This document shows, piece after piece, positions 28,848-64,000 of a stretch of 64,000 bases of DNA (positions within the stretch are counted from its first letter, which is position 1; every line of letters starts with the position of its first letter). The notes below the pieces were generated by a model. That model made no database searches. It saw only the letters and a program-made list of their open reading frames with translations, and had not been told where the DNA came from. The DNA is taken from assembly GCA_963696295.1 (NCBI GenBank), contig CAVOJR010000001.1:960001-1024000 (forward strand), written 5' to 3'. This stretch comes from an uncultured Chlamydiae bacterium. Its GTDB lineage: Bacteria > Chlamydiota > Chlamydiia > Chlamydiales > JAJFMB01. Both the position numbers and the translations under genes were made by a program.

Positions 28848-29321
28848 TCATATCTTCCAAATCTCATAGATATTCAGTTTCTGATAATCCTCTACATCTA
28901 TTCCGAGTGCTGACAAGGTATTGTGGAGGCATATATATTTTTCAGCTATAGATTTATCTGGGAACAGCAAATTCTCGTTTAATAAGTCTTTAAAATCAGT
29001 CAACTCTTTAAGCTTACCGAATAAAATTTCATTAAATATGGAAGAATATGTGGTTTCTTCTTCACAAACTCCAACATCATAACCTACTTTAATTGCTGGA
29101 TTATTTAAAAATGAGGGTAAGAATTCGCCGGAAAAAACATGCAAAATATTGTTCGAGTTTTTTATTTCTTCTTTGATCGGTAAAATATCAATCAATTCCC
29201 CCTCAAACCCTTGATACGTATCTAATATTTGCAATACGGATAATTCATTTTTCTTTCTTATTAAATTTGGCCAGCAAAAACTGGAAGGACCGTATTTTTT
29301 AATTATTACATTCATATTCAA
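28848..29321 (-). CDS. Second AT-rich small ORF after the Rhs toxin; candidate (orphan) immunity protein
   Basis: Co-oriented, 10 nt downstream of the first candidate immunity gene. Confidence 0.55.
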   Translation of the reverse strand: MNMNVIIKKYGPSSFCWPNLIRKKNELSVLQILDTYQGFEGELIDILPIKEEIKNSNNILHVFSGEFLPSFLNNPAIKVGYDVGVCEEETTYSSIFNEILFGKLKELTDFKDLLNENLLFPDKSIAEKYICLHNTLSALGIDVEDYQKLNIYEIWKI

Positions 29322-29331
29322 CCCATGAATT

Positions 29332-29787
29332 TTATTTTAGAAAGTCGGATTCTAAAAATTCGACCTCCTTGAACTTTGCTGCAAGTCTATTAATCATACT
29401 CTCATCTTTTGAAAACACCTCCCAAAAAGAACTATCAAACATTTCAATCACAATATCGCATGTTTCGTACATTTCCTTATCATCTTTATAACGGACTAAT
29501 AGTTTTTCATCAAAACAGCCTATGAGAATAATATTTATTATCTGTGTGAATTGTGTTGAAAGGATGTTGAGGATATCCCATTTTATAAAAAATCCTTTTT
29601 CGGAATTGTAAATTTGTTGCTCGAATTCAGGGAGTGATTTTCCTTCTCCCAAGTCCCCAACTGCATCTAAAAATAAAATAGACCAATTCATTAACATTCC
29701 ATTGTAAATTTCATTGAGAATATCTGGAAGTTGGACATATATAATGCCGTTTCTTTTATCTTTTATTCTTATTCCTTTAGTTTTCAT
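29332..29787 (-). CDS. Candidate cognate immunity protein
   Basis: Start overlaps the Rhs stop (ATGA); small, acidic and AT-rich. Confidence 0.7.
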   Translation of the reverse strand: MKTKGIRIKDKRNGIIYVQLPDILNEIYNGMLMNWSILFLDAVGDLGEGKSLPEFEQQIYNSEKGFFIKWDILNILSTQFTQIINIILIGCFDEKLLVRYKDDKEMYETCDIVIEMFDSSFWEVFSKDESMINRLAAKFKEVEFLESDFLK

Positions 29788-32700
29788 TCATAGCTCCATC
29801 CATCTACCGGTTCAGCTTCGGCTCTTTGCTTTGTTCCTCCGGTCGGATTTTCTTTATACCTATGTTGATGAGGATTGGTATGATTATGAGGTCTTCCATG
29901 GTCAGTGAAATCAATATCTCTGACAGGTTGACCATTTTCATCAAACTCTCTGGCCTGTGTGTACTTGCCTTTGCTACCACTCTCTTTTCCTAATTGGGTA
30001 TGTGGAGCATCTGTGTCAGGAGTTTTTACACCATGCTGATCTTGTGGCAATGGCCTATCTGGAGCATACATATCAGTATTTTTCAACAAATATGTATTAT
30101 GATACTGCGAATGCTCCCAGCAATTGTAGGCCTTCACTCCTTCATTAATGACTAAAGCCGTTGCAATAGTATAAGCAGTTGCCAGCACAGCCTCCGTAGA
30201 AATTGCTGCAAGGGCCACTTCCGCTCCCCAAACTAAAAGAGGAATGGCAAATACTACTGCTTCACCTGTAGGATCACTATAACGCAGAGGATTATTAAAG
30301 ACATACTGATAAAGGTTAGTGCTGTCGATGAAGCCGGCCGGATCCTTCGTAAGCCACCTGCCAACTTGGGGATTGTAAAACCGCTTTCCAATGTGTACAA
30401 AACCAGTCTCTGGTTCAACCCGCCTGCCGGCATAGCGCCAGGGACTTATTTTGCCTTCTGAAAGCTCCTCGCCAAATGCTGTGTAGGCATACTCTTCTGT
30501 AAGTTTTCCTGAAGAAATGTCTATCAGTGAGAGAACGCTGCCTGCCATATCGCAAAGGGGGGTGTACACCTGATCTTCTTTCTCGATGGCAACGATGTGG
30601 TTAAGCTCTTTATGAGGCTCTAAAATACGGCATTCAATCATTTTGTTTGAGGTGACTGTGCCAATTTCATAACGGCCGTCATATAGGTAAAGCTCATTAT
30701 TCTTTGAAAGGCGCCGGCCGGAAAAATCATACATGTATTTGTAAACTTCATTTTCTTTGGTCACTTTTATAAGACGGTCAAGAGCATCGTATGAGAAAGA
30801 TGATCCGTTGAGTCCGCTTAGACGCCCGCAAAGGTCATAGCGATATGAGCTGTTTCCATCATCTAAAACTTGATTGAGGTTGTTTATCTCGTAAGAGTTG
30901 TTATCTTTAGCGGTGCGGTTGTAAAGGGAATCGTTTTGATAGGTATGATGGGGTTCTTTTATAAGCTGATCTAAGTAATCATAGGCGTATTCTTTACACA
31001 TGCCATTGGATATTAGTCTTTTAACATTTCCGCTGATGTCGTATTCGATTGTTTGTGTCAAAGCGGGGTGAGATTGTGCGGTGATCCGATTCATGGGATC
31101 GAAGGCGTATGTGAGGGTGCCTGCTTTCCCCGGAAGCTTTTTGCTTAAAGGATTTCCCTTAAGATCGGATTGAATTTCTTGAGTGTATTTCTCTTCTCCA
31201 GCAGAGATGCGCGTGACTTTTGTCAGGTTTACAGGGTCGTAGACGTAGCAAACCAAAGAACCATCCGGCAGCTCTGTAGCGATCACTCTTCCCCTGGCAT
31301 CATAAGTGCGGCGAATAACAAGGCCATTTCCCAATTTTTCTTTAATGACTTTCCCCAGCTGATCATAGGATTTTTCCGTTGTGGTTTTATGAATCAAATC
31401 ATCAACTTTTACGAGATGGTCATTGCGATTATAACTATAGCAGTAAGCAATGGTGTGATCGGAAGAGGTCATAGAACTAAGACGCCCCTTTCCATCATAC
31501 TCGTAGGTAATGGTGGTGCCATCGGGTTTAACGAGGGCTTCTTTTTCACCAAAGCGGTTGTAACGATAACAGGTGGTTTTTTGATCGGCAGTGTTGCGGG
31601 CCTCAATCACTCTTAGGAGTTGATTTAAGGCATTATATTCCCACTTTGTTTCAACGGAGGTATTTTTGATCCAATCTCTTTGCAGTTGAATATTGCCAAG
31701 GGGATCGTAGAATAGCTCCTTTTTCGAGATGAGTTTTCCAAATGGATCCCGTTTTTCAATAAGGCTTTCCTGATTAAGGGCATTCAACGTGGTGCTGGTT
31801 TGGATGCCGGAAGGATCTGTTTTGATAATTTTTGTGACCGAGCTGTATTCATAGGAAAAACGGGTGATATTCCCTAAAGCATCAGTGATTTTTAAGGGTT
31901 TTCCAAGCGGGTTATACTCTGTAACGGTTTGCCCGTCGGAGCGAATTTCATGGGTTCTATTGCCGTTTGAGTCATAAACATAATTGACTTTTCTGTAAAT
32001 AATTCCATCATGGTCTTCTATTCTCTCTTCAATGAGTCGATCGAGAAGATCGTACTCTTTGACGGTAATCGCATCTGCCTCTTTAGTTTTATGTACTCTG
32101 CCGAGGGAATCATACTCGTAGGTGATGAGGCTGTTTGCTTTGGAGCGGGAAATCAGACGCCCTGCGCCATCATACTTATAATAGGTCGTAATTCCTTCCG
32201 GATCCGTTTCAGATGTTAAGTGAAAGGCGTTATAAGTATATGTTTTGACAGAAAATTCGTCTTCTTCTTTTAAAACCCTCTTGAGGGGGTCGGTTGTGTA
32301 GGTGGTGATTTTTGCGTTTTTAGCTGTGGCTTCTTTTAGAGTTCCATCAGGGTTATAAACGAAAGACTCTTTAGTCCCGTCAGGATACTCGATTTGAAGA
32401 GGCTTGCCGTGTATGTTATAAACTTTTTTTGTGGAATCCCCTCTTTGATCTGTGTAGAGGGTGACATTGTTAAAGATGTCATACTCCTGATTTACCGAAG
32501 TTTTTTTGAGAGTTCCCCTTGGAGTTTGAGTTGGGGGATAGATAGTTTGTATCAATCTGCCAAGTGTATCATATTTGTAGGTCGTTTCATTGCCGCAATG
32601 ATCTATGGAGGCAATTTTTTGATTGAGGTGATTATATCGATAACTCGTTGTCAGTACATTATTTTCAAAAAGAAGAGTTTCTGTAATACAGCGGTTAGAA

Positions 32701-34445
32701 TAATCGTAGGTGTATTTTTTTTGATGCGTCGGCCACTCTTCAGAGATAAGATTGTCATTAGCATCATAGACCCGGCGAATCTGCTCGCCTAAGGCATTTG
32801 TTTCACAAGTGATATTGCCATGGGAATCGTATTCCCAATTAAGAGCATAACGATAGCTGTCATTGCTGTCGTAATGCTCTTCCTGGAGAAGTTTTCCAAC
32901 GGGAGAGTAGCGTTTAATTACTTTGCTGATGAGCTGCAAGGTATTTTCAGGAGTGAGGTATTTCTCTTCGATGATTTCAGGCAGCCCTATCGGCATTGAT
33001 TTTGTTGGGGTGATTGAGGTGATTCTTTTAATGCCATCCCCCTCAATGACCTCCCCAATTAATACCGAAGTTGAATCGTAGGAATAAGTGTGTTTTTTGA
33101 TCAATTTCGAATGACAATAAATCTCTTTGGTGAGCAGTCTTTGCTTTCGGTCGTAGGAATAGCGTAGTTCCAGACCATTATCCTCTTTCTCATGGGTGAG
33201 CAAATGATCGCTGGAGTAGGTATATCGCTTTGTGTAGCTTTGATCTCCTGTCAGGGTCTCGGATGAAATATTGCCGAAAGCATCGTATTGAAAGGAACGG
33301 GTTTTTTGGATCTCTTTACCAGTAAAGGTATGGGTAAGCAATTCCCCAAAATCATTCCAGGTGAACTTCTCTTTAGAGTAACGAGTAGAATTGAGATAAC
33401 GGGTGATGCCGGTTAAACGCTTATTATCGTCGTAGGTGTATTTTGTAGGATGATGATAAGCATCAAAAACTATAGTTTTTCCGTGAGAATAACTGAAGGT
33501 ATGGGTGACTATCGGAGTTGCATCGGAACCGACCGGACTTGCAATCGACTTAACTTTGTTTACAGGCTCACCTTCTTCATAATAGGCAATTAACCGCGTT
33601 CGCTGATCCGGTAAACTCCGCTTGCAGATATGTTCGTTATTAACGTGATGGCTTAACATGGCGTATTCATACTTGATCGTTGGAGCATCGGAAGGGACAA
33701 CCTCAGTGATGTGTACGAACGGTTTTTCACGATGGGCGCTTTTCCTAAATTTCTTCAGATGGTAGGTAATCTTTCTGCCATCGCTGCTGTTAAGAATCAG
33801 TTGATCGTCAAGCTTTTTCAACTCAATTTCGCAGTGGGTTTTCGAGTCGCGGTCAGTGGATACGATGCGGGTAAGAGATCCTTCATCATCGCGATAATAA
33901 AGGGTTTGATTGCCGTTGGGGAGCACTTCTTTTGTGAGAAGATTTTGTTGTTCCACAGAAGAAAAATCCCTGATGGTGCCCGAGCCTGAAATAGCCTGCA
34001 ATCCGCTTTTTCTTTGGATCAAGGCGATGTTTTTCAAGTTGTTTCTCGCGCTGATCTCGCCAAATCCACAGTTGGTAAAGCCTTGACCTGACTTCTCTTT
34101 ACAGAAAGATCCATTTTTATATATTGCTGTTCTGCCGGATCGTTCGATATAGCAGGCCATTTCCTTTTTCCTAATGATGGAACTGTCATGATTGTGGCGC
34201 CACCCCCAAAATAGGGAGTGTGTGTCATAGTCAGAGCTTGAATAAAACCTTTCAAAAGATATAGGATTGGGACTTTGAATGTACAGATCCAGTCCGCTTT
34301 CGACATAGTCGCCTGTGATAACATTAACGCAATTCCCTGCAAGCGTGGGGAGTCCTCTTTCCACATCGGAAAATGGGAGACTGTTTTCGAAATCTTCTCC
34401 CCACAATGAGGAGAACAAAATCAGGAGAGAGATCAGGCGCTTCAT
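29784..34445 (-). CDS. Rhs/YD-repeat polymorphic toxin with signal peptide and His-rich C-terminal toxin (Ntox24-like)
   Basis: Signal peptide MKRLISLLILFSSLWG; DUF6531-like CVNVITGDY; many YD repeats; core RFYNPQVGRWLTKDP...NPLRYSDPTG; tail RDIDFTDHGRPHNHTNPHQH. Confidence 0.9.
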   Translation of the reverse strand: MKRLISLLILFSSLWGEDFENSLPFSDVERGLPTLAGNCVNVITGDYVESGLDLYIQSPNPISFERFYSSSDYDTHSLFWGWRHNHDSSIIRKKEMACYIERSGRTAIYKNGSFCKEKSGQGFTNCGFGEISARNNLKNIALIQRKSGLQAISGSGTIRDFSSVEQQNLLTKEVLPNGNQTLYYRDDEGSLTRIVSTDRDSKTHCEIELKKLDDQLILNSSDGRKITYHLKKFRKSAHREKPFVHITEVVPSDAPTIKYEYAMLSHHVNNEHICKRSLPDQRTRLIAYYEEGEPVNKVKSIASPVGSDATPIVTHTFSYSHGKTIVFDAYHHPTKYTYDDNKRLTGITRYLNSTRYSKEKFTWNDFGELLTHTFTGKEIQKTRSFQYDAFGNISSETLTGDQSYTKRYTYSSDHLLTHEKEDNGLELRYSYDRKQRLLTKEIYCHSKLIKKHTYSYDSTSVLIGEVIEGDGIKRITSITPTKSMPIGLPEIIEEKYLTPENTLQLISKVIKRYSPVGKLLQEEHYDSNDSYRYALNWEYDSHGNITCETNALGEQIRRVYDANDNLISEEWPTHQKKYTYDYSNRCITETLLFENNVLTTSYRYNHLNQKIASIDHCGNETTYKYDTLGRLIQTIYPPTQTPRGTLKKTSVNQEYDIFNNVTLYTDQRGDSTKKVYNIHGKPLQIEYPDGTKESFVYNPDGTLKEATAKNAKITTYTTDPLKRVLKEEDEFSVKTYTYNAFHLTSETDPEGITTYYKYDGAGRLISRSKANSLITYEYDSLGRVHKTKEADAITVKEYDLLDRLIEERIEDHDGIIYRKVNYVYDSNGNRTHEIRSDGQTVTEYNPLGKPLKITDALGNITRFSYEYSSVTKIIKTDPSGIQTSTTLNALNQESLIEKRDPFGKLISKKELFYDPLGNIQLQRDWIKNTSVETKWEYNALNQLLRVIEARNTADQKTTCYRYNRFGEKEALVKPDGTTITYEYDGKGRLSSMTSSDHTIAYCYSYNRNDHLVKVDDLIHKTTTEKSYDQLGKVIKEKLGNGLVIRRTYDARGRVIATELPDGSLVCYVYDPVNLTKVTRISAGEEKYTQEIQSDLKGNPLSKKLPGKAGTLTYAFDPMNRITAQSHPALTQTIEYDISGNVKRLISNGMCKEYAYDYLDQLIKEPHHTYQNDSLYNRTAKDNNSYEINNLNQVLDDGNSSYRYDLCGRLSGLNGSSFSYDALDRLIKVTKENEVYKYMYDFSGRRLSKNNELYLYDGRYEIGTVTSNKMIECRILEPHKELNHIVAIEKEDQVYTPLCDMAGSVLSLIDISSGKLTEEYAYTAFGEELSEGKISPWRYAGRRVEPETGFVHIGKRFYNPQVGRWLTKDPAGFIDSTNLYQYVFNNPLRYSDPTGEAVVFAIPLLVWGAEVALAAISTEAVLATAYTIATALVINEGVKAYNCWEHSQYHNTYLLKNTDMYAPDRPLPQDQHGVKTPDTDAPHTQLGKESGSKGKYTQAREFDENGQPVRDIDFTDHGRPHNHTNPHQHRYKENPTGGTKQRAEAEPVDGWSYE

Positions 34446-57463: not shown

Positions 57464-58759
57464 TTAGAAGCCGATGCCCAAAGAAAGATTCACGCCATCG
57501 AAGCACAAATCACCGACGCTGCCGATGTGATTAAATCCGACATAGCGGTGATGCTCTACGCCCAACTGATGGATGAGGGTGATATCTCGGCATAGGGTTT
57601 GCTCCCATCTGACACCCAAGATAATATCGATAAATAATTGGCTGGCCTGTTCCCTTCTTTTTTCGCAGCATATGCATTTTTGATCAAGTTCTGTAAAGGT
57701 ATCGGCGCCATAGGATTTCAATTGGTGATTGCCATACAGCAATCCCAAATCAAAATTGCCAAAAAAGCTAAAACAGCGGCTTAACTTATAATCTGCGCCA
57801 ACTCCAACTAAAGGGCCCACAGCTTTGAAATTCGCCTTATCTTTGCGTTCCTTGGTAAATGAGAAGTTATCCGATACGCATTTCGACTCTATATTACAGA
57901 CCGAAAATATATTTTGCCGGATATACGCACCTCTTATTCCCCAGAAAGGACTGATATTCAGGCATGAATTTAAATGCAGCGCTCCGGTAAAAAGGGCATC
58001 GATGGTATCGTAGCGAAGTTTCCAATGGTCGCCGCACTCCTCTTTACATCCATGATGAGGGTATTGCTGATAATGTGTCCAAACCAAATCTCCCTGACAG
58101 TCTGAACAAATCGATTGGCAGCCCACGCCCAGGCGGCAACCCGCGCTCCAATGATGATTTTTCCATTCTGAACTGCAATCGCAATCGCTCTGACCGCCTT
58201 CCTCAAGAGCCCTCCAATAAAGAAACTCTCCTAAAAATTTCAGCCTGTATTGTCTTCTGGGTTTACAATCTCCGGAATTGACCAGCAATGGAAGCGCCAT
58301 TATGCGGTCCGCACAAATGTTCTGTCCCTCAGGAGCGACAGGAGGAGTGTATATGCAGCTTTCCTCTCCCAGGCATGAACCCTCCGCCTTAGAAGGGGCG
58401 TTTATGGGGCTCTCCTCACAGATCTCAGGAGCCTTAGAAGGGGCGCTTATGCGGCTTTCTTCGCAGATCCCAGGAGCCAGAGACACTATTATGCTTTCCT
58501 CACAAATGCTTGATTCCTCAGGAACCAGAGAAGCTATTAGGCTATTTTCCACACAAACGCATGCATCCTCAGGAGCCAGAGACACTACTATACTTTCCTC
58601 ACAAACGCCTGATACCTCAGGATTTAGAACCGAAATTATGCAGCGCTCCTCTTCCACAATATTTTGTTCGAAGGAAATCTCTGGTTCAGCAAAAACCTGC
58701 CCGCTCAATAAAAGGGTTAATAAAGCACTTAAACACTTTGATTTCAAAGAGATAAACAT
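57464..58759 (-). CDS. Cys-rich outer-membrane beta-barrel protein (Lpg1974/Legionella MOMP-like) with N-terminal repeats
   Basis: Signal peptide, GEFLYWRA, GCRLGVG, PFWGIRGAYI, GDLCFDG and terminal F; repeated EESxIxSxAP units. Confidence 0.7.
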   Translation of the reverse strand: MFISLKSKCLSALLTLLLSGQVFAEPEISFEQNIVEEERCIISVLNPEVSGVCEESIVVSLAPEDACVCVENSLIASLVPEESSICEESIIVSLAPGICEESRISAPSKAPEICEESPINAPSKAEGSCLGEESCIYTPPVAPEGQNICADRIMALPLLVNSGDCKPRRQYRLKFLGEFLYWRALEEGGQSDCDCSSEWKNHHWSAGCRLGVGCQSICSDCQGDLVWTHYQQYPHHGCKEECGDHWKLRYDTIDALFTGALHLNSCLNISPFWGIRGAYIRQNIFSVCNIESKCVSDNFSFTKERKDKANFKAVGPLVGVGADYKLSRCFSFFGNFDLGLLYGNHQLKSYGADTFTELDQKCICCEKRREQASQLFIDIILGVRWEQTLCRDITLIHQLGVEHHRYVGFNHIGSVGDLCFDGVNLSLGIGF

Positions 58760-59337
58760 AAACCAGTCCTTATAGTAAATTACATAGCCCATCAGGGTAG
58801 GCGTTTGACAGAGTATTAAAATTACATTTAATGGGCAAATAGTTTCTTCTCGCTCACCCCTTATGGAGCAATTAGGCAAAGCTCTATCTGACAGATTGGA
58901 TGTTGAAATTCTGATTGAGATAGAAAAACTAAAGGACCCGCGCCCTGAAATTGAAAAAAATTACACCTGTCATCCCAACAATACTCACTCTCTAGTATAA
59001 TTTTTCCATTCATTTCCTGACGCTGCTTGAAGTCCCGATTGAAATGATATTTCATTTTCCATCGGAATGAACAAAGTATCCTTTTTTGTAACGCGTGAAT
59101 AGCCGAAAAGAGAATAGAGTGAAAGGGTCATCCAACATAAGCAAGCATTATGCTGAGAATGATACAGACTATGTCTTCACATCACACATTAAGATTAGCC
59201 CGACTGAGCAATTGATGATCGGAAAAATTAACCCAATAAGAACTTTGATAATTCAAAAATTCAGGGGGTTCTATTACCCCCTGACCATACCATTTTTATA
59301 AATTAACCGAACAATTCTACAAAACCTTAATCTAATA

Positions 59338-62300
59338 TTATTGCAGTTGTAGAATATTGAAATATGCAGCAACGGGAGTGGGACCTGTTGCTCCCAATGC
59401 TCCTGTACCGCCGGAGCCCAAATTATTAATGCTCACCGTTGCACCAGTAGCACCCATAAAACAATAGGTTTGAGAATAAGCAAAGGGCTTAGATGGTAGA
59501 CCTATTATGCTATTATTTTGCAAAGCACCATTTATATAGACAGCATATCCATATGATTGATCATTATCATTTATCAATACTCCAAAATCGATCTCATAAA
59601 TGCCCGCAGTTGGTAATGTGAAAGAGTAATTAGTAAAACCCATCGAGCCTGTCACGATCGGTGATGAATCAAATGGAATTGCTGCCCCTGGATTTACCAA
59701 TTGGTTACTGGATACCAGGTTTACAAACCCACTAGAAAGTAAACCACCAGTTCCCGGAGAACCTGTGGCTCCGTCAACGCCTGTAGCTCCGTTAGAACCA
59801 GTTGCACCATCAGAACCTGTAGCTCCGTTAGAACCAGTTGCACCATCAGAACCTGTCGCTCCACCAGCTCCGGTAGCACCCGCAGCACCCGTGGCTCCAT
59901 CATTACCTGTAGCGCCCGCAGAGCCTGTGGCTCCACCAGCTCCGGTAGCACCCGCAGCACCCGTGGCTCCACCAGCTCCAGTAGCACCTGCGGCACCAGT
60001 TGCTCCGTCATTACCTGTAGCGCCCGCAGAGCCTGTAGCTCCACCAGCTCCAGTAGCACCTGCGGAACCTGTAGCACCTGCGGAACCTGTGGCTCCACCA
60101 GCCCCGGTAGCACCTGCGGAACCTGTAGCTCCGTCATTACCTGTAGCTCCTACAGCACCCGTAGCTCCTACAGCACCCGTTGCACCATCAGATCCTGTAG
60201 CTCCATTAGAACCCGTTGCACCATCAGATCCTGTGGCTCCGTTAGAACCAGTTGCACCATCAGATCCTGTAGCTCCATTAGAACCCGTTGCACCATTAGA
60301 TCCTGTAGCTCCATTAGAACCCGTTGCACCATTAGATCCTGTAGCTCCGTTAGAACCAGTTGCACCATCAGATCCTGTGGCTCCGTTAGAACCCGTTGCA
60401 CCATTAGATCCTGTAGCTCCATTAGAACCCGTTGCACCATTAGATCCTGTAGCTCCGTTAGAACCAGTTGCACCATCAGATCCTGTAGCTCCATTAGAAC
60501 CCGTTGCACCATTAGATCCTGTAGCTCCTACAGCACCCGTAGCTCCTACAGCACCCGTTGCACCATCAGATCCTGTAGCTCCGTTAGAACCAGTTGCACC
60601 ATTAGATCCTGAAGCTCCGTTAGAACCAGTTGCACCATTAGATCCTGTAGCTCCGTTAGAACCAGTTGCACCATCAGATCCTGTAGCTCCGTTAGAACCA
60701 GTTGCACCATTAGATCCTGTAGCTCCGTTAGAACCAGTTGCACCATCAGATCCTGTAGCTCCATTAGAACCCGTTGCACCATTAGATCCTGTAGCTCCTA
60801 CAGCACCCGTAGCTCCTACAGCACCCGTTGCACCATCAGATCCTGTAGCTCCGTTAGAACCAGTTGCACCATTAGATCCTGTAGCTCCGTTAGAACCAGT
60901 TGCACCATTAGATCCTGTGGCTCCGTTAGAACCAGTTGCACCATTAGATCCTGTAGCTCCGTTAGAACCAGTTGCACCATTAGATCCTGTGGCTCCGTTA
61001 GAACCAGTTGCACCATCAGATCCTGTAGCTCCATTAGAACCCGTTGCACCATTAGATCCTGTAGCTCCTACAGCACCCGTAGCTCCTACAGCACCCGTTG
61101 CACCATCAGATCCTGTAGCTCCATTAGAACCCGTTGCACCATTAGATCCTGTAGCTCCATTAGAACCCGTTGCACCATTAGATCCTGTAGCTCCATTAGA
61201 ACCCGTTGCACCATTAGATCCTGTGGCTCCGTTAGAACCAGTTGCACCATTAGATCCTGTAGCTCCTACAGCACCCGTTGCACCATCAGATCCTGTAGCT
61301 CCATTAGAACCAGTTGCACCATCAGATCCTGTGGCTCCGTTAGAACCAGTTGCACCATCAGATCCTGTAGCTCCATTAGAACCCGTTGCACCATTAGATC
61401 CTGTAGCTCCATTAGAACCCGTTGCACCATTAGATCCTGTAGCTCCATTAGATCCTGTAGCTCCGTTAGAACCAGTTGCACCATCAGATCCTGTGGCTCC
61501 GTTAGAACCCGTTGCACCATTAGATCCTGTAGCTCCATTAGAACCCGTTGCACCATTAGATCCTGTAGCTCCGTTAGAACCAGTTGCACCATCAGATCCT
61601 GTAGCTCCATTAGAACCAGTTGCACCATTAGATCCTGTAGCTCCGTTAGAACCAGTTGCACCATTAGATCCTGTAGCTCCGTTAGAACCAGTTGCACCAT
61701 TAGATCCTGTAGCTCCTACAGCACCCGTAGCTCCTACAGCACCCGTAGCTCCTACAGCACCCGTAGCTCCTACAGCACCCGTAGCTCCTACAGCACCCGT
61801 TGCACCATCAGATCCTGTAGCTCCGTTAGAACCAGTTGCACCATCAGATCCTGTAGCTCCATTAGAACCCGTTGCACCATTAGATCCTGTAGCTCCGTTA
61901 GAACCAGTTGCACCATTAGATCCTGTGGCTCCGTTAGAACCAGTTGCACCATTAGATCCTGTAGCTCCGTTAGAACCAGTTGCACCATTAGATCCTGTGG
62001 CTCCGTTAGAACCAGTTGCACCATCAGATCCTGTAGCTCCATTAGAACCCGTTGCACCATTAGATCCTGTAGCTCCTACAGCACCCGTAGCTCCTACAGC
62101 ACCCGTAGCACCATCAGATCCTGTGGCTCCGTTAGAACCAGTTGCACCATCAGATCCTGTGGCTCCGTTAGAACCCGTTGCACCATTAGATCCTGTAGCT
62201 CCTACAGCACCCGTAGCTCCTACAGCACCCGTAGCTCCTACAGCACCCGTAGCTCCTACAGCACCCGTAGCTCCTACAGCACCCGTAGCTCCTACAGCAC

Positions 62301-64000
62301 CTGTGGCTCCGTTCAAGCCGTTAGCACCCGTAGCACCTGTAGCTCCCGGATCCCCCTTAGCTCCAGGATCCCCTTTGTCCCCTTTCGCTCCCGTAGCGCC
62401 GTTGGCTCCCGGAGGCCCGCGGTTAATCGGATTGCAGCTGAACTCATCGCCTTTTAAGGCTTCTTCAAACTCGCTGACAATGAGATCGTCGCTAAAGTTG
62501 ACTTTTTTCTTCAGATGTCCTTTATCATAGATCTCTTGCTTGAGAAGATTGCTCGTGCCGGGCTGATAATAGTTGTAAACCTGCAAGCCATTAGAATCTT
62601 GCGTGCTGACGAGCAGATTTAACCCATCCTCGGAATAGACCGAAGTTTTCACTGTGCAAAGTTCATTGTGAGCAAACAGCAACTCGCCGTCTTCATCAAT
62701 TTGGATGACGCTGTCTTCTGCACCCGCAGGCACTTCATAAAGTTTCTCTTCTATCACATTGCCAAAGGAGTCATACTTGAAAGTTTGATAGAGCTGGATA
62801 TCGCCCTTTCCATCGGCAATCGCTTTGGCCTGCAACAGTCCTACATCATGGGGATTATTCCCCCAATAGAAGCGCTCAATCTGCTGAAAAGAAGGTTCGT
62901 TTCTGACGATTTCGGTCAGCTGATGGCGATCATCAAAGGCATAATGTGTCTCTGATCCCAAGTCGGTAGTAACATCGGTGGACCCTTCATTATATTTGAA
63001 GAAATATTCCCTGTCGGAGAGCTTCAGGCTTCCAACTTTTCCTTGCGGATCATAATTGATGTGGAGTTCGTCATTTTTTTTCACCAGCAGACAAAGATTA
63101 TCCCTCACCTCATATTCATAGGTACAAGAGGGCAATTTGGAACCGCTCACTCTCGTCAATGCCTGTGTTCCATTCATCGCTGTAAATTGGTACTCGACCG
63201 AGCAATCATCCGACTTTAAAGTGATGCGGTAATCCTTGTCAAAATTGTAGGCAAAGTCAATATTGTCGAGTGTTTTATCCCCGTTCTTTAGCTCGACCGA
63301 GCTCAAATACCCCTCAGCGTCATAGGAATACAAAAGGTGATTCCCATTCGGCAGCGTCTCTTCGCTCAAACAGTAATATTCCGGATTGGCAATTTCTGCA
63401 CTTAACTGGGGTATCAACTCTTCACAGCCGATCAGTCGGGGCAATTTCTCCACTTTCTGATAGATCTTTTTCGTTCCATCCCCTAAAACTGCTTTACAGG
63501 TCTTTCCCATATAAAAGAGTTCATTGTTCTGATGATTATTCCGGCCGCTGATCTCTTTTAACGAAGTATTGACAATGCCGACTCCGTCATTCAACAAATC
63601 CACTTTTAAAGAAAGGGGTTCGACGCCGTCGTATTTCCCTTTGCCGCTATAGGTCAATATGGCGCCTGAGCGCTCGCCCGCAAAGGCGTAAATTTTATCG
63701 GTTGACTGGCGTAAAAATCGTTGGAAAAATGAAGAACCCTCTTTCCCAACAACCATATAGGTTGTCGGCAAGATCCTCCAGCCGCCTTTTTGCTGGCCGG
63801 TCATGTAATTCTTTACATTGAAAAACCTCTGTATGGAAAAGTCATCGGACAGTGCAAGATCGACAGATCTTTCGCAATAATCACCCGTGATGACATTGAC
63901 GCAATCCGCAACAAAACTGTTCGGATCGGATTCTGTAGAGGGCAGAAGTACTGCTGACCGCCCGGCAAACAGGTTTAAAGGAACAAAAAACAATAGGAAA
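59338..64000 (-). CDS. Rhs N-terminal module fused to a long collagen-like helix and a BclA/C1q-like C-terminal domain (5' end beyond the window)
   Basis: Frame is open to the window edge (signal-like [12 protein letters not shown]). CVNVITGDY and YD-like repeats to about aa 500, then Gly-X-Y repeats, then a beta-rich tail (AIPFD...GIYEIDF...VYING...FNILQLQ). Confidence 0.85.
59746..62418 (-). repeat. About 297 Gly-X-Y triplets built from 18-bp units ([24 protein letters not shown])
   Basis: 2673 nt of near-identical tandem units with higher-order blocks. Confidence 0.97.

Follow-up and report, generated by a model that had tools for sequence, protein, structure and literature searches.

The window analysed here is a stretch of 64,000 nucleotides from an uncultured Chlamydiae bacterium (assembly GCA_963696295.1, contig CAVOJR010000001.1, positions 960,001 to 1,024,000), whose genome, referred to as G000, comprises 3.43 Mb in two contigs. 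The end of the window carries, on the minus strand (59338..64000), a single open reading frame that joins the first part of an Rhs protein to a long collagen stalk. Its start codon, an ATG at 64017, lies 17 bases past the window end and was taken from the genome sequence; the stop is at 59338, and the frame encodes 1559 amino acids (aa). The protein begins with a predicted Sec signal peptide (aa 1-18, in-window part 63964..64000), the most hydrophobic 19-residue stretch of the chain, whose cleavage site was placed by eye and in which no lipobox was seen. There follow an Rhs-derived cup (aa 19-506, 62500..63963), a neck (aa 507-533, 62419..62499) with Cys528 six residues ahead of the collagen, a stalk of 298 Gly-X-Y triplets (aa 534-1427, 59737..62418) and a BclA_C/C1q-like tip of 132 aa (59341..59736), all on the minus strand. 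The protein has no hydrophobic stretch after the signal peptide and no C-terminal membrane anchor, the chain finishing in the BclA_C-like tip.

An earlier note on this DNA had placed about 297 triplets at aa 526-1416. The long in-frame collagen stands, and its limits have been refined to those given above with the start codon outside the window. The stalk contains 145 Thr, 109 Ser and only 5 Pro; 144 of the 298 triplets are GAT, and the units are mostly GAT-GSN/GSD/GAV. Because exact repeats of up to 236 nt occur in the stalk, the triplet count is soft. At 0.286 nm per residue, the length is estimated at about 256 nm, close to the filament of about 250 nm proposed earlier. The suggested BclA/C1q-like tip of about 135 aa was recovered by the Pfam search, which matched BclA_C (PF18573, E 2.1e-7) at 31.3 bits, below the curated cut-off of 38.

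The Rhs relatedness of the N-terminal part was borne out by the BLASTP comparison with the intact Rhs protein of the same window (29784..34445, minus strand), which showed 27% identity over 521 columns for aa 1-534 (E 2e-28). The five motifs that had been noticed in the two proteins (CVNVITGDY, ERSG, EISARNN/EISGRNN, LPNGN and YDAFGN/YDSFGN) are all present in both. The Pfam families expected for the fusion were found in the case of RHS_repeat (36 bits, cut-off 22), collagen and BclA_C, while DUF6531 appeared only faintly (E 0.076). As the earlier note had seen, the protein lacks the Rhs core and its cleavage site: an NCBIfam scan gave no RHS-associated core match, and a motif scan detected no PxxxxDPxG autoprotease motif, the sole DPxG being a YD-repeat turn at aa 323.

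The AlphaFold model of the cup is all-beta (predicted local distance difference test, pLDDT, 91.9; predicted template modelling score, pTM, 0.90). It matches residues 360-743 of a Salmonella bongori Rhs protein (8qjd_B; Z 24.3, root-mean-square deviation (rmsd) 2.8, 357 aligned) and residues 270-709 of RhsA (7q97; Z 22.0, rmsd 3.5, 370 aligned). A beta-propeller had been considered as the fold of the cup and was dropped after this search; an Atlas search with the cup returned Rhs-type clusters only. According to the available part of the source, the plug of RhsA comprises residues 268-386 (PMC8765631). Since the fold match covers this plug and extends beyond it, the module consists of the plug and about the first third of the beta-spiral shell, forming an open cup which, judging by the fraction of the shell, may span about one turn. 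The same plug and first part of the beta-spiral are found in the Rhs/YD-shell proteins (RhsA 7q97, 8qjd and DUF687-tipped Rhs; Z 22-24), and the separate platform domain envisaged in the earlier note turned out to be this beginning of the shell itself. Homology to Rhs covers columns 8-527 in the profile of the parent, which is about 1850 aa long, and stops there; the collagen continues in frame.

The fusion gene is real and not an accident. A second fusion in the same genome (C1:2565003-2570372, 1789 aa) has the same junction and a module that is 95% identical; its stalk is another one, with 337 triplets, and its tip is unrelated. This tip had no Pfam match; the clusters returned by an Atlas search with it were mostly viral and unnamed, and C1q came at rank 12 only. 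Over 488 codons, the two mature modules differ by 61.5 synonymous and 25.5 non-synonymous changes, and the ratio of non-synonymous to synonymous rates (dN/dS) is 0.10, a figure that gene conversion may blur; conversion between the copies may have played a part, because their identity peaks at the 5' end. The ratio lies between 0.05 and 0.12 in each third of the module and is 0.035 in the neck (28 codons).

A misassembly or a recent accidental fusion in G000 is hardly credible. The stalk is highly repetitive and no read set of the source strain was found, which would leave room for a misassembly; no RNA run containing it was listed either. Yet two diverged copies have the same junction and the fusion is present in eight other genomes. 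In addition, a soil-metagenome contig (depth 3.4) covers the end of the Rhs part, the neck and the start of the collagen (window positions 62383-62549) and differs in 3 letters; it is a single contig, from a run that is perhaps independent of the assembly. It came from one of four soil runs with small shares, the others having yielded short pieces only. Against a recent fusion speaks the Rhs protein of the parental subfamily in G000 itself, which is not sister to the fusion. The second copy, the other genomes and the contig across the junction indicate that the fusion is old and recurrent; neither of the two objections that the earlier note had raised against itself, a misassembly and a recent accidental fusion, was borne out.

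The distribution of the fusion was studied in 432 distinct genomes (401 of the phylum, 73 of one family and 31 relatives), where mostly full Rhs proteins were matched; the top loci and 34 further regions with short or odd frames were cut out and read. Frames combining the module with collagen were found in at least 9 of the 432 genomes, in four families and with 14 genes, a lower bound since few candidates per genome were scored and part of the matches were read. G000, G023 and G115 have two such genes each, G248 has three, one of them frameshifted, and G127, G177, G422, G321 and G118 have one each. The best 150 of 3895 hits in an HMMER scan of cluster representatives included six more fusions (P0059, P0062, P0073, P0091, P0131 and P0159). 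After the removal of near-duplicates, and with five later-found genes left out, 254 module-bearing rows comprised 14 with collagen, 186 with an Rhs shell and 54 with neither. Word-index protein searches found no fusion among 42 and 7 matches, and pattern scans of genomes and metagenomes (24 and 13 loci) gave only three fusion loci, of a kind already seen. By their titles, the named records with fusions belong to Parachlamydiaceae (L073) and Waddliaceae (L075); the sources of the P0066 and P0052 clusters give the name Parachlamydia acanthamoebae. For this species, databases list the family only under labels such as 'BclA C-terminal domain-containing protein' (WP_059359759.1) or 'collagen-like'.

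The module carries various payloads, namely BclA_C-like tips, of which one in G023 passes the BclA_C cut-off (75.5 bits), a repeat head with an S74 chaperone, and FN3 with GH75 in place of collagen. The last of these was seen in G358 (L046:3823-6687, plus strand), where an eroded Rhs cup is followed by FN3 and a GH75 chitosanase-like domain, and which falls in the same clade as the collagen fusions. A fusion of G115 (L127), P0059, P0062 and P0159 have a short or medium collagen and then a head of G-x-x-N-T-A-x-G repeats; P0059 and P0159 end in a C-terminal S74 chaperone, as in phage and MAT fibres. P0194 (729 aa) lacks most of the shell: its Rhs N-terminal part is followed almost at once by an end that resembles DUF687, a likeness judged by eye.

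The nearest full-length relatives of the fusions are Rhs proteins of about 1850 aa with a DUF687 end (about 40% identity). The intact Rhs of the window, which the earlier note had used for comparison, is a distant paralogue and not the parent, as shown by Pfam, BLASTP and the trees. The phylogenetic analysis with FastTree (94 rows) placed 12 collagen fusions, the GH75 fusion and two proteins ending after the module in one clade (support 98). The fusion clade was also recovered, inside one Rhs subfamily, with an IQ-TREE mixture model on 41 rows, 27 chosen Rhs and 14 fusion-type (bootstrap 97, Shimodaira-Hasegawa-like approximate likelihood ratio test 90). The Rhs of the parental subfamily encoded by G000 groups in a different clade, and therefore the fusion was not recently derived from it. 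Trees built on 160-180 columns had weak or no support, and short remnants were not firmly placed.

Two Rhs loci of G000 show features of their own. The DUF687-tipped Rhs (L003; G000:C1:1546380-1551889, minus strand) is split into frames of 1301 and 570 residues, with a transposase-like frame, labelled by eye, about 0.7 kb upstream. The region of the intact Rhs of the window (28848-34445, minus strand) includes a weak Ntox24 tip (E 8.7e-5, slightly under the cut-off) and then two small genes of 151 and 157 aa, which are candidate immunity genes.

The neck has a cysteine at most 25 residues ahead of the collagen in all 19 fusions examined. Such a neck cysteine is also present in six of seven short collagens of G000, and 17 of 20 barrel-linked collagens (see below) have a cysteine between signal and stalk, the signal having been cut roughly. 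This recurrence suggests an already existing fibre gene as the source of the neck in the fusion. The seven short collagens lie together (L004, G000:C1:719781-731887) with two GT2-TPR genes and no barrel gene nearby; they have signal peptides and C1q/BclA-like tips, and three of them have 28 triplets.

The earlier note proposed that the Rhs N-terminal module is a modular base for secretion or anchoring. If the cup were an export or anchoring signal common to toxin-bearing Rhs proteins and fibres, one would understand why 10 of the 14 fusions end the module at parent columns 524-566, why it is under purifying selection in G000 and why it also carries a non-collagen payload. Besides, the parents have signal peptides, and RHS-family proteins are among the predicted chlamydial outer-membrane clusters in the available part of PMC2811131. 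However, this explanation is unlikely. The remnants kept in complete genes do not overlap (columns 82-256 in G115 and 372-550 in G118); hence there is no part of the cup that every member requires, and the G115 remnant has a dN/dS of 0.54-0.61. The module is absent from all 29 barrel-linked loci described below and from the seven short collagens found in G000; far more collagens lack it than have it, and it is the barrel that goes with the fibres. What stands of the proposal is the modular reuse for non-toxin payloads, collagen and the FN3/GH75 of G358, and not a role as secretion or anchoring element.

The stepwise erosion of the cup over the family could also mean that it is a hitch-hiker, the fusion having supplied a promoter and a signal peptide and the Rhs part being lost everywhere. 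Branches several-fold longer than those of full Rhs proteins are in line with this, as is the dN/dS of 0.89 between two G248 copies, a value that comes from 19 differences only, with one copy frameshifted. On the other hand, the ratio is low in all thirds of the G000 module, and near-full cups have been kept in at least three families at 36-41% identity, which makes a mere hitch-hiker improbable.

Beyond the fusion gene lies a gene for a PF05150 (Legionella MOMP-like) outer-membrane barrel (57464..58879, minus strand; E 5.9e-18, probable start 58759), for which, as for the tip, the NCBIfam scan gave no name. The barrel has an N-terminal extension of about 130 aa, made up of Cys/Glu-rich 'CEES' repeats, which is absent in an 84% identical paralogue (C1:2563482). 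Directly past the fusion stop there is a terminator-like hairpin (59261..59284, minus strand; 9 pairs, 6 of them G-C, and a T tail), a consensus match only, with 5 such sites found against 6.0 in shuffles.

Both fusion copies of G000 adjoin near-identical PF05150 barrel genes, while the remaining 8 of the 10 barrel paralogues lie at least 14.9 kb from any collagen gene. As regards the closest barrel homologues, the best loci of 29 other genomes were compared: in 23 of them, a gene with 8 or more triplets lies no more than 1.5 kb away, in most cases just upstream on the same strand, and a further four have a BclA-like tip gene. A control barrel paralogue has a collagen gene nearby in 0 of 29; this comparison is no statistical test, because of the kinship among the genomes and because the families differ between the two sets. 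A count by tip profile (26 of 29) is partly circular, 17 of those tips having built the profile, and the collagen count is free of this. The fusion tip aligns with the tips of the barrel-linked collagens. In the barrel tree, the collagen-linked barrels and a pair from G248 form one branch (support 96, 27 of 33 rows), to which the window barrel belongs, whereas the control branch is mostly found in tandem barrel arrays without collagen. The barrel is the constant partner gene of the collagen fibres, not of the Rhs module. A partnership with the Rhs part was considered and rejected after a scan of 63 loci, where the barrel was found only at fusion loci and at one full-Rhs locus (L056). The loci L138-L166 contain a two-gene unit that is widespread in several chlamydial families: a PF05150 barrel gene and, directly upstream of it, a short collagen whose tip is conserved and BclA-like and whose neck is often Cys-rich and helical.

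The barrel model (pLDDT 86.7) matches 9nh1 (Z 28.5), OpcA (Z 20.8) and OmpT (Z 19.0), which we take to be narrow 10-stranded barrels. A complex prediction with cup, tip and barrel, from which the stalk and the trimeric neck were excluded, scored 0.00 in two runs (mark 0.32). Some large adhesins are held by retention domains. By analogy, the cup might be a periplasmic stopper, the neck and stalk passing through the barrel and the bulky folded piece keeping the fibre from slipping out. Such a stopper would account for different fragments sufficing while the fold is still conserved, and for a dedicated barrel clade. It is very unlikely, however, since a narrow 10-stranded barrel would hardly pass a glycosylated triple helix, on general knowledge, and most barrel-linked collagens have no bulky N-terminal domain. 

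A bolder reading, less likely than not, is that Chlamydiae have a display system of two partners that is so far undescribed: glycosylated collagen fibres would be mounted by a dedicated 10-stranded MOMP-like barrel, and one branch would have captured the Rhs lid and first ring as a foot or stopper. If true, a toxin container would have been turned into an adhesin base with exchangeable tips.

Gene context suggests that the stalk is modified. All three GT2-TPR paralogues of G000 lie beside collagen genes, one of them as the gene that immediately follows the second fusion. In G023, a close homologue (E 4e-146) is found two genes away from a fusion. The GT-TPR enzyme SgtA, whose gene lies just upstream of bclA3, O-glycosylates Thr in collagen repeats according to the available part of the source (PMC7157674). 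As for export, G000 has the type II genes for a secretin and, beside it, gspF. Legionella Lcl, as far as the accessible text describes it, is a collagen trimer that uses the type II system for export and is kept on the surface by way of its N-terminal part (PMC11162425).

Starting from the architecture, its recurrence, the tip exchange, the folds of cup and barrel, the selection in G000 and the gene linkage, the best explanation is a secreted fibre on the cell surface, trimeric and glycosylated, for which a dedicated barrel serves as mount and the Rhs cup as an optional foot; we give it a probability of about 55%. The protein would be the long member of a chlamydial family of such fibres. The fusion clade suggests a single event in an ancestor, in which a collagen-fibre gene received, at its neck, the 5' third of an Rhs gene with a signal peptide and a DUF687 tip. 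The chain would cross the inner membrane by Sec, for which the signal is seen, and three chains would zip from the C1q-like tip, as the biology of BclA and C1q suggests. The Thr/Ser-rich, Pro-poor stalk may be O-glycosylated by the GT2-TPR enzyme, in view of gene position and the SgtA precedent. Export of the fibre would probably go via the type II system, and the 10-stranded barrel would keep it at the surface or lie next to it there, a contact proposed from the linkage of the genes. About 250 nm out, the tip may bind host or matrix, and it is swapped between the copies. The cup has no toxin and no self-cutting, and would be an optional folded foot at the cell-near end, conserved in G000 and freely trimmed elsewhere.

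Several observations weigh against this explanation. The strong purifying selection on the whole G000 cup exceeds the need of a mere spacer. The barrel is at most two genes away for only 5 of the 14 fusion genes, in 2 of the 9 genomes, and in the window the terminator-like hairpin and about 580 nt lie between the two genes; no GT2-TPR gene stands beside the window copy. The fusion branches are long (0.5-2.2), which may make their grouping in part artefactual, and the fusions did not stay together in a tree restricted to 180 early columns (5 changes). Moreover, Sec and type II export, the trimer, glycosylation, mounting at the barrel and adhesion by the tip are steps that we infer.

Among known systems, the Rhs polymorphic toxins differ from the fusion in what it has lost: the core protease, the toxin tip and two thirds of the shell are missing, with collagen in their place, the C-terminus is BclA_C-like and the next gene is a barrel and not an immunity gene. 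The BclA-type glycoproteins of Bacillus and Clostridioides spores have in common with it a Gly-X-Thr stalk, a putative BclA_C-like tip and a GT2-TPR gene beside collagen genes, but the fusion has a Gram-negative host, a Sec signal, an Rhs foot, a barrel partner and Ala/Ser instead of Pro at X. The exosporium of a spore has no counterpart in the chlamydial host; to our knowledge, Chlamydiae form no endospores. Lcl resembles the fusion in its signal peptide, collagen stalk and, probably, trimeric tip, but is anchored by a short amphipathic helix and has a DUF1566 tip, and the available part of its description mentions neither an Rhs part nor a dedicated barrel (PMC11162425). In the fusion tip, Pfam found no DUF1566 match and gave BclA_C only. 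The MAT fibres of Bdellovibrio are surface trimers with exchangeable tips, some of them S74-ended or TNF/C1q-like, and the words 'collagen', 'Rhs' and 'barrel' do not occur in the accessible portion of the text (PMC10769870). Tip exchange and S74 are seen in the fusion relatives, so this is a likeness by features. Unlike trimeric autotransporters, the fusion has no membrane anchor at the C-terminus of the same chain. The window barrel is a member of the PF05150 barrels of Legionella and environmental chlamydiae and differs from the others in that its clade is gene-linked to collagen fibres. In its working, the fusion resembles BclA, Lcl or MAT fibres, and it does not belong to the Rhs toxins.

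No description of an Rhs-collagen fusion or of chlamydial collagens was found in the literature searched, which mostly left out subscription papers and did not cover supplements. The word 'collagen' is absent from the available text of PMC2811131 and from the first 300,000 characters of PMC3482391, for which a listing counts one occurrence; the supplementary tables of outer-membrane proteomes may list fusion proteins.

Known Rhs shells are closed containers or, in the case of teneurins, whole empty scaffolds. The reuse of a stable partial Rhs shell as the foot of a collagen fibre was not met with in the same literature. The gene is real, encodes a probable surface collagen fibre with a surprising Rhs-derived foot and comes with a testable hypothesis of its mounting, which can be tested now, since the family is present in cultured Parachlamydia acanthamoebae. 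Environmental chlamydiae have many MOMP-like proteins, and the barrel linkage offers a concrete role for one branch of these as well as a candidate for how such chlamydiae reach amoebae or other hosts.

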